The position numbers and the translations under genes are program-made. Of a stretch of 40,751 bases of DNA, positions 17,690 through 32,354 are shown in pieces; the first letter of the stretch is position 1, and every line of letters begins with the position of its first letter. Location of the stretch: sequence record NC_002166.1. One strand, written 5' to 3'. Origin of the DNA: Escherichia phage HK022. The notes below the pieces were generated by a model. The model ran no database searches. It was not told the DNA's origin and worked only from the letters and a program-made list of their open reading frames with translations.

Positions 17690-17992
17690 ATGGCTTATGG
17701 AATACAGACCTGGGATGCTTCAGGAAAACCCAACAACTATGGCATCAAACCCGTTTCCGTCGTTGGGCGAATACAGCTGGCTGCCGGGCAAACCTCAGGC
17801 AGCTGGTCTTTTACGGTGCCCTCAGGAATGAAAGTTGGTTTTGTTCTTTCACTTGATGAAGGAGGTAACAGCGTAGGGCGGCGCATTGTCGCGTCAGGGA
17901 GCACAATAACCGTAAGCGCTGCATCTTCTGTAGGTCTGGGTAATTATCCGGCCTCAAAGTGTGAAGTGGTCGTTTTCATGGAGAAAGCATAA
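17690..17992 (+). CDS. hypothetical protein (100 aa), tail accessory region
   Basis: ATG 2 nt after J stop; shares a G.xxWD(A/S)SGK motif with the next ORF. Confidence 0.5.
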   Translation: MAYGIQTWDASGKPNNYGIKPVSVVGRIQLAAGQTSGSWSFTVPSGMKVGFVLSLDEGGNSVGRRIVASGSTITVSAASSVGLGNYPASKCEVVVFMEKA

Positions 17993-18630
17993 TGGCCGAA
18001 TTTGGCGCGATGATATTAATGGACAACGGGAACCCATTTGTAACGCCCCAGTCAACGCCTTTTTGTCTTTACGGCAAGTACACTTTCAACTCCTCTGCTA
18101 ATGGCAGTTCGCAGCAGGTTGCTCAGAATATTGCATTAAATGCTGACTACCCTGTGATGGTATTTATCAGGACCACAAATACCGCCCAGCCCACGCCAGT
18201 AATATCTTACCGGAACGGCGGAAATATATATGTCGCGGGGGTTAATCCCTATAACCAGAGCTTCACGTTAACCGCATATATTTTTGCCATATTTCCCCAG
18301 ACGTTACCGAAATGGGGGATGGCCATCTGGGATTCGAGCGGGAAGCTGGTACTCACTAATGAGTCCCGCGTGCTGTCAGACTTGCAGACAATCGGAACGC
18401 CTGGAGCAAACGGCGGGATTAACATTGACCAGACGCTTGATGGTTCATGGGCAGTGGCTCCATCAAGGCTGGGGCAAGTGAACAGAAACGACGCTTACTC
18501 ATCTTGTAGGTATTCAGGCACAAGTACAAGAATAAACGCCGGTACAGCCGCAAATACACCTGGCGGTGCTGGAGGGGTGATAAATAATGGAATTATCCTG
18601 ACAGCAATTAAAACAGACGCCTATGACTGA
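17992..18630 (+). CDS. hypothetical protein (212 aa), tail accessory region
   Basis: ATG overlaps upstream stop (TAATG); GGAGA RBS; Gly/Asn/Thr-rich, fibre-like composition. Confidence 0.5.
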   Translation: MAEFGAMILMDNGNPFVTPQSTPFCLYGKYTFNSSANGSSQQVAQNIALNADYPVMVFIRTTNTAQPTPVISYRNGGNIYVAGVNPYNQSFTLTAYIFAIFPQTLPKWGMAIWDSSGKLVLTNESRVLSDLQTIGTPGANGGINIDQTLDGSWAVAPSRLGQVNRNDAYSSCRYSGTSTRINAGTAANTPGGAGGVINNGIILTAIKTDAYD

Positions 18631-18737
18631 TTGTTTTGAGCGATCAATAACAAATAATTTATCTATCTAATCAATTATACCCATCGATTATGTATTGGTA
18701 TCTTCGAAGCTACTGAATACCTCTGGATACTATCAAA

Positions 18738-18971
18738 ATGAAAAGGCTAATTATCTGCATAGCGGGCGCTTTAATGCTGTCTGGTTGCGCTGGTGTACTT
18801 GAGAAACAGAAACCGATTTGCAGCGGCACGGCATATATGGGTGGCCATGAGAATACCGTTATGATTTACGCCGTTCGAAAGCAAAACAACCAGACGCAAT
18901 ACCGGGCCGGATATCCCTTTAACTGGCGCTGGGTAAGTGCGAACACATTCACAAGCACGACATGTAAATAA
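18738..18971 (+). CDS. cor: small lipoprotein, Cor-like (candidate superinfection exclusion)
   Basis: 77 aa; signal peptide with lipobox LSGC (Cys17); AT-rich upstream region; followed by a terminator; same position as cor in phi80/N15-type phages. Confidence 0.6.
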   Translation: MKRLIICIAGALMLSGCAGVLEKQKPICSGTAYMGGHENTVMIYAVRKQNNQTQYRAGYPFNWRWVSANTFTSTTCK

Positions 18972-18991
18972 CTCATGATTTTCAATGCAAA

Positions 18992-19016
18992 CCTCGCCTC
19001 GGCGGGGTTTTTTATT
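18992..19016 (+). terminator. rho-independent terminator
   Basis: CCTCGCC-tc-GGCGGGG hairpin plus T6. Confidence 0.6.
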
Positions 19017-19029
19017 GCCTGGAGAAAAT

Positions 19030-20130
19030 ATGCTTTATAACACTGGAACCATCGCCATTAACGGAAACAGCGCCACCGGCACGGGCACGAACTGGACGGC
19101 ACCCGCCAGCCAGGTTCGCGCTGGCCAGACGATTATCGTGATGTCTAACCCGGTGCAGCTGTTTCAGATTTCATCCGTGAACAGCGCCACGTCAATGACG
19201 GTTACTCCAGCTGCTTCCCCGGCGCTGAGCGGCCAGAAGTATGGAATTCTTGTGTCGGACATTATCTCGGTTGATGGGCTGGCACAGGCCATGTCACAGC
19301 TCATCAAAGAGTACGACGAGAATATTGGCGCGTGGGAGACCTTCGCCAGCACCTCAGCAAACCAGCTGGTCACTGTGACAATCAACGGCACCAGCCTCAG
19401 CATTCCTGCCATCGGTGGTCTCGCCCGGAAAGGGGCAAATAGCGATATCACAGAGCTGAAAGGGCTAAGTACAGCATTGAGTGTTGCTCAGGGTGGGACA
19501 GGTGGCAAAAACGCTACGGACGCAGCAAATAATATTGGTGTTGGGCCTGCCAGTTATCCATTATTTTCTGGAGCGACCGTTTCGACAACAGGCTATGCAA
19601 TTCTCGGAGCGCAAAATACTTCGCGAGAAGCAACGGATGTTGGGGCACGCGTTCAGCTTGAAGCGTCTATTGCTGCAAACGCTCCCGCAGTAATCATACA
19701 AAGGAATAATCAGAATAATCAGACAGGACAAATACGCTCAGTACTGCCATCAACATCTGGCACACTTGCTGTGCAGGGAACATCAGGAAGAGACTATAAA
19801 AAGAACATTTCTCCTGCGAATCCAGAAGAGGCTTTAGGAAGAATACTTGCGCTTGAGCTTGTCAATTTTGTTTACAAGGATGATGAGAAGGATCGCCAGA
19901 GATTTGGGATTATTGCGGAAGACGCAGAAGTTATTGCTCCACAATATATTAAACACAACCAAGAACCGATTCCAGGAACGGAGGTTTTCAATGAAGATGG
20001 ACACAAGATAGGAGAGGAGTTCCGTGATCGCCCATCAGTAGACAATAATCCTATTGTGATGGACCTGATTGGGTGTATTCATGGGTTGCAAAGACAAATT
20101 ACCGATCTTAGACAGGAGCTTGTTGACTAA
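19030..20130 (+). CDS. tail fibre protein with C-terminal intramolecular chaperone-like domain
   Basis: 366 aa from ATG 19030 (GGAGAA RBS); the track's upstream start at 18985 would read through the terminator; C-terminal segment RFGIIAEDAEVIAPQYI resembles the self-cleaving chaperone domain of tail fibres and tailspikes. Confidence 0.7.
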   Translation: MLYNTGTIAINGNSATGTGTNWTAPASQVRAGQTIIVMSNPVQLFQISSVNSATSMTVTPAASPALSGQKYGILVSDIISVDGLAQAMSQLIKEYDENIGAWETFASTSANQLVTVTINGTSLSIPAIGGLARKGANSDITELKGLSTALSVAQGGTGGKNATDAANNIGVGPASYPLFSGATVSTTGYAILGAQNTSREATDVGARVQLEASIAANAPAVIIQRNNQNNQTGQIRSVLPSTSGTLAVQGTSGRDYKKNISPANPEEALGRILALELVNFVYKDDEKDRQRFGIIAEDAEVIAPQYIKHNQEPIPGTEVFNEDGHKIGEEFRDRPSVDNNPIVMDLIGCIHGLQRQITDLRQELVD

Positions 20131-20452
20131 AGCCTTTTAGTAAAATCTTGATTTCAGGAATCAAAACTTCCATTGGTTAGATAGGTTGGATTAGTGAAAA
20201 AACCGCAAATCCTAGACCGACAGAGCGAGGAACATTCACGGATTGTTTACAATATGCAATGCTGCAGTCACGCAATAATTAACGGGCTGCGGCAGCGGCC
20301 AGGTTGTTCATGCCCTGGCGAGTGCAGAAAGTATATAATTTAATAATGCGGTCACCACATGTTTTGCCCGATTTTGGTTGCCGTACTGATAGCCTCAGCC
20401 GGTTCTTTGAATAATCTTGCGGTAGCCAGACTCCAACTCCCACTCCTTTGAC

Positions 20453-26600: not shown

Positions 26601-27657
26601 GGCTTTGTTGAATAAATCAGATTTCGGGTAAGTCTCCCCCGTAGCGGGTTGTGTTTTCAGGCAATACGCACGCTTTCAGGCATACCTGCTTTCGTCATTT
26701 TGTTCAGCGCTCGTACCAGGGCCATAGCCTCTGCAACCTGACCATCGTAGTCACGCAGTGTCAGTGAACCCCCGAACAGCTGTTTTACCCGGTACATCGC
26801 CGTTTCCGCTATCGAGCGACGGTTGTAATCTGTTGTCCATTTCCACCGCGCATTACTCCCGGTCATTCGCTGATTAGCCACTGCACGGTTACGGTCTGCA
26901 TATTCACCGGGCCAGTAACCCGCACCTTTTCGGGGAGGGATAAGCGCGCTGATTTTCTTACGCCGCAGTTCATCGTGACATAGCCGGGTATCGTAAGCGC
27001 CATCGGCGGCGGCTGACCTGATTTTCCGGTGGGTTTGCCGGATTAACCCGGGGAAGGCCTCTGAGTCCGTAACGTTGTTCAGCGACAGGTCAGCGCAGAT
27101 GATTTCATGTGTTTTACTGTCAACGGCGAGATGCAGCTTACGCCAGATACGGCGGCGTTCCTGGCCATGCTTTTTGACTTTCCACTCGCCTTCACCGAAG
27201 ACCTTCAGCCCGGTGGAATCAATTACCAGGTGTGCGATTTCACCCCGGGTGGGCGTTTTGAAACTGACATTAACCGACTTTGCCCGCCTGCTGACACAGC
27301 TGTAATCCGGGCAGCGTAGCGGAACGTTCATCAGAGAAAAAATGGAATCAATAAAGCCCTGCGCAGCGCGCAGGGTCAGCCTGAATACGCGTTTAATGAC
27401 CAGCACAGTCGTGATGGCAAGGTCAGAATAGCGCTGAGGTCTGCCTCGTGAAGAAGGTGTTGCTGACTCATACCAGGCCTGAATAGCTTCATCATCCAGC
27501 CAGAAAGTTATGGAGCCACGGTTGATGAGGGCTTTATTGTAGGTGGGCCAGTTGGTGATTTTGAACTTTTGCTTTGCCACGGAACGGTCTGCGTTGTCGG
27601 GAAGATACGTGATCTGATCCTTCAACTCAGCAAAAGTTCGATTTATTCAACAAAGCC
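26601..27657 (-). mobile_element. IS903-like insertion sequence (IS5 family), 1057 bp
   Basis: Perfect 18-bp terminal inverted repeats GGCTTTGTTGAATAAATC (26601..26618 and 27640..27657); flanked by 9-bp direct repeat TTGGAATGA (26592..26600 and 27658..27666). Confidence 0.9.
26657..27580 (-). CDS. IS903-type transposase
   Basis: 307 aa from GTG at 27580 (track extends to a TTG at 27625); ends ...MTKAGMPESVRIA as in IS903 transposase. Confidence 0.85.
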   Translation of the reverse strand: MAKQKFKITNWPTYNKALINRGSITFWLDDEAIQAWYESATPSSRGRPQRYSDLAITTVLVIKRVFRLTLRAAQGFIDSIFSLMNVPLRCPDYSCVSRRAKSVNVSFKTPTRGEIAHLVIDSTGLKVFGEGEWKVKKHGQERRRIWRKLHLAVDSKTHEIICADLSLNNVTDSEAFPGLIRQTHRKIRSAAADGAYDTRLCHDELRRKKISALIPPRKGAGYWPGEYADRNRAVANQRMTGSNARWKWTTDYNRRSIAETAMYRVKQLFGGSLTLRDYDGQVAEAMALVRALNKMTKAGMPESVRIA

Positions 27658-27724: not shown

Positions 27725-28063
27725 TTATGACCACTTTTTGTTTGGGTTTCGCTGGTGAGCGTGATTAACAACTCTGTGCATTACATCCTCATATTTTTCA
27801 TCTTCAATTTTTTCGACATCGCGAGGAAATGGTGTTGCTAATGCTTTGTCAACTTTGTCCATTGGGTCTTCATTAATCTTATATTCAGGACCGTCATCTA
27901 TAGCATTAAATCCAGGTGTCACACCGTTTTTTAATGCATATGCTATCCTTTTTTCCCATCTCGCTATTCTCCTCCTGTCTCGAGATGTAAGACCTCTATC
28001 AGATACTTTTCTGTTTTGTCCGCTGTCAGGATTAACATAAATAGTCTTTTTCACCATAAGCAT
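27725..28063 (-). CDS. nun: Nun-like arginine-rich transcription termination factor (N-position protein)
   Basis: 112 aa from first ATG (track start 28069 is TTG); arginine-rich motif RKVSDRGLTSRDRRRIARWEKR; acidic centre; C-terminus ...NPNKKWS; no SD, as for N-like genes. Confidence 0.75.
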   Translation of the reverse strand: MLMVKKTIYVNPDSGQNRKVSDRGLTSRDRRRIARWEKRIAYALKNGVTPGFNAIDDGPEYKINEDPMDKVDKALATPFPRDVEKIEDEKYEDVMHRVVNHAHQRNPNKKWS

Positions 28064-28239
28064 ACCCAATAAGCACCGTACGGTAGTTTACTGTACAATT
28101 TTATTTTTTGGACTGCATGTATTTTGTTTCCTAATGGGTTTGAATCTTTGCAATAAATACTTCTATTTTTTCGAACGACTTCTATATCAAAAAGCTGCTT
28201 TGCTTTTTGTGACTAAAAGCAAAAAAGCCTTCTCGCTAA

Positions 28240-30928: not shown

Positions 30929-32354
30929 TTTTTATGCGCCGCCCCATAGCATCGAGGCAGAGCAGGCGGTGATTGGTGGATTGCTTCTGGATGATGACAG
31001 CAGTGAGCGCGTCCAGAAAGTCCTGGCGATGCTGAAGCCTGATTCATTTTACAGCCGACCACACAAAATCATTTTCGAAGAAATAACCAGAATGCACCGG
31101 GAGCAAAAGCCAGTAGATGGCCTGACGCTTTTCGATGAACTGGAGCGTAAATCGTTAACGGCGTCTGTTGGCGGTTTTGCTTATATCGCTGAGATCGCAA
31201 AGAACACGCCAAGCGCAGCAAACATCGTTGCCTATGCAATGCAGGTTCGAGAAACCGCAATGGAACGCTACGCCATCAACCGCATGACTGAAGCGACGGA
31301 ATTGCTCTATTCCCGCAACGGAATGACTGCAACGCAGAAGTACGAAGCTATTCAGTCGATTTTCACGCAACTGACAGACCATGCAAAAACCGGATCGCGT
31401 CGCGGCCTTCGTTCATTTGGTGAGGTCATGGAAGACTGGGTTAGCGACCTTGAGAAGCGATTTGACCCATCAGGCGAACAACGGGGAATGAGCACAGGGA
31501 TCCCATCGCTGGACAGGATGCTGTCACCGAAAGGTCTGGTGAAAGGCTCTCTGTTTGTCATTGGCGCTCGCCCTAAGATGGGTAAAACGACGCTATACAG
31601 CCAGATGGCAATCAACTGCGCAGTGCATGAGAAAAAGCCCGCTCTGATGTTCAGCCTTGAAATGCCCGGTGACCAGATACTGGAAAAACTGGTGGGACAG
31701 AAGTCAGGTGTTAACCCGAATATTTTTTACCTTCCGGCGACAAATGACGCTGATGACGGCTATCAGGGTGATTACGATGGTGACTTCAACAGGGCGATCG
31801 AAACAGCAAATCGCTTGAGTGAAATCGATATGCTTTACATCGACGACACGCCTGGATTATCTCTGGCACAAATCGTCAGCGAAAGCCGTCGAATCAAGCG
31901 AGAAAAAGGATGTGTTGGCATGATTCTGGTCGATTACCTGACACTAATGACCGCTGAGAAGGCCGATCGTAACGACCTTGCTTACGGCATGATCACCAAA
32001 GGATTGAAGAACCTTGCCAAAGAGCTTGATTGCGTTGTTGTGCTTCTGACACAGCTTAACCGCGCACTGGAAAGCCGAACCAATAAACGCCCATTACCAA
32101 GTGACTCGCGCGATACAGGGCAGATTGAACAGGATTGCGATTATTGGGTGGGGATCCATCGTGAAGGTGCTTTTGATGACAGTGTTCCACCTGGTGAAAC
32201 CGAACTAATCCTTCGTCTCAATCGTCATGGCAATACCGGCACGGTGTATTGCATTCAGGCAAATGGCGCTATTTATGACACAGACCAACAGTCTGCTGAA
32301 ATGCGCCGCCGTGAACGCGAGGAACCGCAATCCAAGAAGAAAGGAGGATTCTGA
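30918..32354 (+). CDS. replicative DNA helicase (DnaB family)
   Basis: 478 aa from ATG 30918 (GAGGG RBS); Walker A GARPKMGKTT and DnaB-like C-terminal domain. Confidence 0.9.
   Translation: MTDNFYAPPHSIEAEQAVIGGLLLDDDSSERVQKVLAMLKPDSFYSRPHKIIFEEITRMHREQKPVDGLTLFDELERKSLTASVGGFAYIAEIAKNTPSAANIVAYAMQVRETAMERYAINRMTEATELLYSRNGMTATQKYEAIQSIFTQLTDHAKTGSRRGLRSFGEVMEDWVSDLEKRFDPSGEQRGMSTGIPSLDRMLSPKGLVKGSLFVIGARPKMGKTTLYSQMAINCAVHEKKPALMFSLEMPGDQILEKLVGQKSGVNPNIFYLPATNDADDGYQGDYDGDFNRAIETANRLSEIDMLYIDDTPGLSLAQIVSESRRIKREKGCVGMILVDYLTLMTAEKADRNDLAYGMITKGLKNLAKELDCVVVLLTQLNRALESRTNKRPLPSDSRDTGQIEQDCDYWVGIHREGAFDDSVPPGETELILRLNRHGNTGTVYCIQANGAIYDTDQQSAEMRRREREEPQSKKKGGF

Follow-up and report, generated by a model that had tools for sequence, protein, structure and literature searches.

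The cor gene of Escherichia phage HK022, an exclusion lipoprotein gene at the end of a conserved FhuA-associated tail cassette

The Cor proteins of phages phi80 and N15 are the founding members of their family and are known for lysogenic conversion to T1 and phi80 resistance. HK022 Cor has been named alongside the N15 and phi80 proteins as protecting lysogens against FhuA-dependent phages, and Cor proteins also lower ferrichrome uptake and confer protection against colicin M (PMC3594210). HK022 itself uses FhuA, the product of fhuA, as its receptor (PMC6814406). Receptor-specific loci downstream of gpJ, together with their cognate exclusion proteins, have been described previously (PMC8594841), and a three-gene cassette that includes cor has been reported in T1, HK022, N15, ES18 and phi80, all of them FhuA users; in relatives that do not use FhuA the whole cassette is absent, and not cor alone (PMC13164509). 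The lipoprotein Llp of phage T5 binds the periplasmic face and the plug of FhuA and folds the loops EL7 and EL8 inward, and its authors proposed the same mode of action for Cor (PMC9586334). Two papers from 2026 (a preprint and PMC13164509) model Cor as Llp-like, one of them working with HK022 Cor.

The window analysed here is the whole 40,751-nucleotide stretch of HK022 DNA (NC_002166.1), and the feature under study within it (Table 1) is the already described cor gene of this phage. Its 77-codon ORF begins with ATG and translates to MKRLIICIAGALMLSGCAGVLEKQKPICSGTAYMGGHENTVMIYAVRKQNNQTQYRAGYPFNWRWVSANTFTSTTCK. This exact protein is on record as AAF30376.1 ("Cor protein, Hendrixvirinae") and also as NP_037685, and phage mEp235 (JQ182731), which is 100% identical at the DNA level over 17690–20200, annotates the ORF as "Cor protein, similar to NP_037685 cor protein [phage HK022]". 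The NCBIfam equivalog NF047972 ("phage exclusion lipoprotein Cor", cutoff 31) is matched with 138.8 bits, and the match covers residues 1–76 and positions 1–76 of the 78 in the profile; PHROG 1119 (phrog_1119) is matched with E = 2.4e-37. A Pfam search returned no family for Cor, nor for the two genes that precede it. Over its full length HK022 Cor shares 79% identity with the phi80 protein and 64.5% with that of N15, and these values, together with the NF047972 score, bear out the Cor-like identity that an original prediction, made from the letters alone, had proposed. We regard the identity as cor, taken jointly with the FhuA exclusion phenotype, as highly probable. Literature and curated databases already cover the gene and its family, as well as the cassette around it and the mechanism by which it probably acts.

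Table 1. Features of the cor locus and its neighbours in the HK022 window.
Feature	Position	Strand	Basis or remark
J-type central tail fibre / tail tip gene, 1183 aa	14137..17688	+	ORF list; mEp235 annotation
100-aa gene, HK022p24 type, PHROG 557 ("outer membrane protein")	17690..17992	+	phrog_557 E=2.4e-36
212-aa gene, HK022p25 type, PHROG 425	17992..18630	+	phrog_425 E=9.7e-75
AT-rich spacer, 107 bp, 29.9% GC	18631..18737	+	composition; presumed site of prophage-active promoter
Candidate extended -10 element (TGnTAnnnT) TGGTATCTT	18696..18704	+	position kept in nine phages
GGA, weak Shine-Dalgarno-like element	18725..18727	+	about 10 nt 5' of the ATG, within the predicted leader
cor CDS, 77 aa + stop	18738..18971	+	NF047972, phrog_1119, identity to annotated Cor
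Type II (lipoprotein) signal peptide, residues 1-16	18738..18785	+	lipobox regex, charge, hydrophobicity
Mature lipoprotein Cys17-Lys77, 61 aa	18786..18968	+	small beta-barrel; conserved Cys28, Cys76, motif YRAGYPFNWRWV
Intrinsic terminator: 9-pair stem, 4-nt loop, T-run	18989..19016	+	dG -14.3 kcal/mol
Side tail fibre gene, 366 aa, C-terminal Peptidase_S74 intramolecular chaperone domain	19030..20130	+	PF13884 E=9.9e-10, phrog_1980

The N-terminus of Cor (MKRLIICIAGALMLSGC, continuing AGV...) has two basic residues and a hydrophobic core with a mean Kyte-Doolittle value of 2.4, and a regular expression places the lipobox LSGC at residues 14–17 (nt 18777–18788). Cys17 is the predicted acylated residue, the equivalent Cys being annotated as acylated in the phi80 record, and because the +2 residue is Ala there is no inner-membrane retention signal. 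The 77-aa lipoprotein with an LSGC lipobox that had been predicted is supported by the ORF, the basic N-terminus, the hydrophobic core and the invariance of Cys17. A total of 114 Cor homologues were found, 52 of which, all full-length proteins from Escherichia, Enterobacter, Citrobacter, Salmonella, Klebsiella and others, were aligned. Nine positions are invariant across the 52 (Cys17, Gly35, Ile43, Tyr44, Gly58, Pro60, Phe61, Trp65 and Cys76), and C28, Y55, R56, A57, Y59, N62 and W63 are at least 90% conserved, with Cys28 nearly invariant. Differences at codon positions 1/2/3 number 9/8/33 between the cor genes of HK022 and phi80 and 18/20/53 between those of HK022 and N15, and this excess at third positions indicates protein-level selection on the frame.

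The HK022 protein is 100% identical to the Cor of HK75, HK446, HK542, HK544, HK106 and HK633, and also to that of mEp234, mEp235, mEp506 and mEpX1. By megablast, the cor sequence occurs in 12 of 5,426 complete E. coli genomes, and all nine genomes whose match spans the gene carry a cor annotation. Several database records call for comment. The gene at 31074–31304 of KY979108 (Escherichia phage ECP1) encodes a Cor that is 92% identical and is labelled "lipase chaperone" in GenBank, probably wrongly; the RefSeq copy calls it Cor. In Aeromonas phage pAEv1818 a cor homologue with 59.7% protein identity (OL964755, 7087–7317) lies in an unannotated gap between a 220-aa gene and a tail protein gene, and appears to be a missed gene call. 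Eight records labelled as Campylobacter jejuni phages, including MG065688, MG065637 and MG065687 ("Campylobacter phage A110b, A15b, A136"), have homologues of Cor as well as of the 212-aa cassette protein, and look like T1-like coliphage sequence with a wrong host label, or contamination. Two laboratory strains of E. coli, NZ_CP081008 (XL10-Gold) and NZ_CP107281 (JCL301), carry a cor with 79.9% DNA identity, the phi80 level of divergence, which presumably derives from phi80-derived lacZ constructs.

In the neighbourhood of the gene, a J-type gene comes first, opening the host-recognition block, followed by a gene of ~100 aa, a gene of ~212–225 aa, a spacer of ~100–110 bp, cor and a tail fibre gene, and this order recurs in phi80, N15, mEp390, Fostie, Enterobacter LAU1, Aeromonas pAEv1818 and Erwinia vB_EhrS_49. 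The mEp235 counterpart of the J-type gene is annotated "central tail fiber, similar to HK022 gp24", with 98.9% identity over the arm, and the 100-aa gene holds the same position in phi80 (PHI80_22), N15 (gp22), mEp390, Fostie, LAU1, pAEv1818 and EhrS_49. The 212-aa protein shows 50% identity to the T1 protein encoded downstream of J and 45%–67% identity to proteins of Dhillonvirus and T1-like phages; it probably attaches to J as a FhuA-specific receptor-binding or accessory protein. The side tail fibre gene, whose exact protein sequence is UniRef A0A2I6PID3_BPHK0 of phage HK022, is positioned downstream of the cor terminator. In every neighbourhood compared (mEp235, phi80, N15, mEp390, Fostie, LAU1, pAEv1818 and EhrS_49), cor is accompanied by both preceding genes. 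Klebsiella T1-like phages have the 212-aa gene only as a partial homologue (coverage 77%, identity 34%), and a Cor match is missing from nearly all of them. Since the cassette is conserved in unrelated FhuA-dependent phages, cor would seem to be the exclusion arm of a FhuA recognition cassette and not a stray insertion. The original prediction had placed the gene after the J-proximal genes and ahead of the tail fibre gene, which is where it lies, here and likewise in phi80, N15 and mEp390. It had also described the gene as an inserted moron; the location in the tail-fibre region stands, but a conserved cassette with cor as its last gene speaks against sporadic insertion. A foreign origin judged by composition was considered and rejected, the cor coding sequence having 47.4% GC compared to ~49% for its neighbours, with only the spacer unusual.

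That spacer, which runs from the stop codon of the preceding gene (18628–18630) to the cor ATG, is far poorer in GC than the window as a whole (49.5%). Of all 107-bp stretches in the window only 0.8% reach this AT-richness, and of those within positions 1–20500, the late-gene half, 0.18% do. The corresponding spacers of phi80, N15 and mEp390, whose flanking genes are annotated, are 111 bp long, and mean column identity in the alignment of these three with HK022 is 81%. The pattern TGnTAnnnT occurs exactly once in each cor upstream region in all nine phages, 38–42 nt 5' of the start codon, and is kept even in N15 and in the Aeromonas, Erwinia and Klebsiella phages with otherwise diverged spacers; from this a cor transcript start near 18711 is predicted. 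Within the predicted leader, the G and A of the GGA element are invariant in the nine-phage alignment, and the complete GGA is invariant in the four-phage alignment. A simple sigma-70 scan upstream of cor found no consensus promoter on the + strand; a relaxed scan gave matches at only 7–8 of 12 positions, the best being the extended -10 candidate. Iron co-regulation with fhuA through a Fur box was also considered and rejected, the best matches in the nine upstream regions failing to stand out from shuffled sequence (a fraction of 0.06–0.97 of the shuffles scored at least as high).

A second pattern lies further upstream. In phi80, mEp390, Fostie and LAU1 the repeats ATTGATC...GATCAAT...ATTGATC bring with them three GATC sites for Dam, located roughly 112, 96 and 81 nt 5' of the cor start codon. 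The HK022-type spacer (18631–18665) retains only the middle site, the other two having been lost through a 4-bp deletion and a G-to-T change. One could imagine the spacer as a regulated prophage promoter, in which the extended -10 is preceded by GATC-bearing ATTGATC/GATCAAT repeats and the HK022-type loss of GATC sites sets Cor levels differently, but we consider this doubtful. If it were true, the trade-off between exclusion and ferrichrome uptake would differ between HK022-type and phi80-type lysogens. The position-conserved extended -10 candidate and the HK022-type GATC loss were not found in published work and are small additions to the description of the locus.

At the other end of the gene, the terminator hairpin occupies 18989–19010, with a T-run to about 19016. 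A "rho-independent terminator" is annotated at the identical sequence of mEp235, and terminators are annotated after cor in phi80, mEp390 and N15 as well. The hairpin is kept in all three, with one compensatory pair change (C:G to U:A) in N15. An Rfam search of 18500–19100 gave sub-threshold hits only, all resting on the terminator hairpin; the istR hit (18872–19013, + strand) reached 24 bits where the gathering score is 45, with E = 0.013. It takes in the terminator as well as the 3' end of cor, and was judged a chance match driven by the hairpin. The AT-rich upstream region and the downstream terminator that had been predicted are present, and the promoter is a candidate read from the sequence.

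How these parts would work together can be outlined. Lysogenic conversion by Cor needs expression while the late operon is off, as what is established about lambdoid regulation and the description of the gene in the phi80 record imply. In the HK022 lysogen the late operon would be silent, so that Cor would depend on a promoter within the AT-rich spacer, the conserved extended -10 being the candidate, with transcription from the prophage ending at the hairpin. During lytic growth, antiterminated late transcription would pass the terminator into the tail fibre gene, and the layout fits a separate unit that is read through in this manner. The 77-aa precursor would be exported, acquire its lipid on Cys17 and be processed by signal peptidase II, steps that we infer from the sequence and the standard lipoprotein pathway. 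The mature protein would then inactivate FhuA, HK022's own receptor, and a lysogen with inactivated FhuA would exclude HK022, phi80, T1 and other FhuA-dependent phages. Exclusion would act at the adsorption or entry step, at a cost in ferrichrome uptake; the exclusion effect has been shown in the literature for members of the Cor family. The explanation as a whole, in which the HK022 cor gene is expressed from the prophage and its product inactivates FhuA so that the lysogen excludes FhuA-dependent phages, is in our estimate very likely correct. Cor is in this respect a textbook case of a prophage altering the host surface: it shields the lysogen, and with it the phage's investment, from all phages that enter through FhuA and from colicin M, and the price is paid in ferrichrome uptake.

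Other readings of the locus were weighed as well. The small size of the ORF and the lack of a Pfam family could suggest that it is open by chance, or that it encodes an unrelated small lipoprotein without a part in exclusion. Such a reading would have to accommodate a curated family match far over its cutoff, 114 homologues, with Cys, Trp, Pro and Gly positions that do not vary in the 52 aligned, a third-codon-position bias of substitutions and synteny kept across unrelated phages; it has next to no chance of being right, and is effectively refuted already by the family match, the invariant positions and the codon bias. A narrower objection grants the gene but would have it expressed only from the late operon in lytic growth, like T5 Llp or T1 Cor, with a promoterless spacer; its role would then be to prevent the adsorption of progeny to debris and to shut out superinfecting phages in the lytic cycle. 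This would agree with the sigma-70 scan and its missing + strand consensus promoter, with the position of cor inside the late tail operon in the same orientation, and with the presence of cor homologues in lytic phages as well. However, the name of the gene goes back to lysogenic conversion by prophages of phi80 and N15, "lysogenic conversion lipoprotein" is its label in the phi80 record, and the Cor proteins of HK022, N15 and phi80 have all been reported to protect lysogens. TGnTAnnnT stands at a fixed distance from the ATG in nine of nine upstream regions, and a terminator placed right after cor, ahead of the next late gene, is the layout of a separate unit. A repressed mEp167 prophage is also said, in work by Uc-Mass and colleagues from 2004, to express exclusion. 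We therefore hold expression from the late operon only to be quite improbable and retain prophage expression.

The step that separates Cor from FhuA inactivation allows for more debate. Judging from the modelled fold, an action like that of T5 Llp is fairly probable, in which Cor would attach to FhuA at its plug and periplasmic face and force the extracellular loops shut; this step of direct binding is drawn from fold similarity. Modelling by AlphaFold2 from the alignment of 52 sequences gave a mean pLDDT of 83.8, with block means of 89 to 94 over residues 31–77, and a structure in which five strands follow the signal-peptide helix. By structural alignment the modelled fold appears to be the same as that of Llp, at 11% identity. 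Among BFVD entries the best matches to the model are a Dhillonvirus exclusion protein and then lipoproteins of T5-like phages; Foldseek against the PDB returned nothing below E = 0.06, the top hits being Tudor and chromo barrels. By sequence, phmmer of Cor against PDB entries did not recover Llp and gave only a signal-peptide match to TraV (E = 1.9), and hhalign of Cor with an Llp profile aligned 29 columns, mostly signal peptide, at 77% probability; a search for Llp homologues yielded four sequences, too few for a useful profile. Cor might alternatively exclude phages indirectly, through OmpA, OmpC, OmpF, OmpW, LamB or Slp, or through an altered environment of FhuA. Interactions of Cor with these proteins are attributed to Arguijo-Hernandez et al. 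(2018) in a review (PMC9311878), the 2026 preprint calls the mechanism of Cor not elucidated, and there is no demonstrable sequence homology to Llp beyond the signal peptide. An indirect route seems to us unlikely, though not far-fetched, and Llp-like binding to FhuA is the reading we prefer.

The remainder of the HK022 window supplies some context for the locus. Its late arm (1–20500) is mosaic, in the usual lambdoid manner: the head region matches mEpX2 and HK140 (97%–98% identity over 87% of the query), mEp235 matches the late arm only from about 5726 onward, and no single record of the phage collection covers the full window. In the early-left region, a transposase-like ORF of 322 aa (MKDQITYLPDNADRS..., 26657..27625, - strand), which we take to be the copy of IS903, with its IS903-type transposase, known in HK022, lies beside a Nun-like gene. 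The latter ORF (27725..28069, - strand) ends ...HAHQRNPNKKWS and is presumably the HK022 Nun transcription-termination protein; as listed, the ORF opens at a TTG that lies upstream of what is probably the true start, the internal MVKKTIY.

The systems described at the outset can now be set beside the HK022 locus. Closest are phi80 and N15, which share with HK022 the lipobox position, Cys28 and Cys76, as well as the gene order J, gp22, gp23, cor, terminator and tail fibre. They differ in detail: the HK022-type spacer is 4 bp shorter and is without two of the three GATC/ATTGATC repeats found in phi80, mEp390, Fostie and LAU1, and N15 has ~165 bp extra between cor and the terminator compared to HK022. 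The Cor proteins of T1-like phages, Dhillonvirus and ES18 are more distant (30%–60% identity to HK022 Cor), and their genes always adjoin homologues of the 100-aa and 212-aa genes (PMC13164509). In CLB_P3, Sponge, SSL-2009a and ES18 the cor strand is opposite to that of the neighbouring gene, and in lytic phages Cor does its work during infection and not as the product of a prophage. T5 Llp (PDB 8A60 chain B, 7QJF) shows only 11% identity to Cor in the structural alignment, and beyond the signal peptide neither sequence nor profile comparison gave a significant match; direct binding to FhuA has been demonstrated for Llp and is modelled for Cor. T5 Llp and HK022 Cor are both 77-aa precursors with a similar spacing of cysteines.
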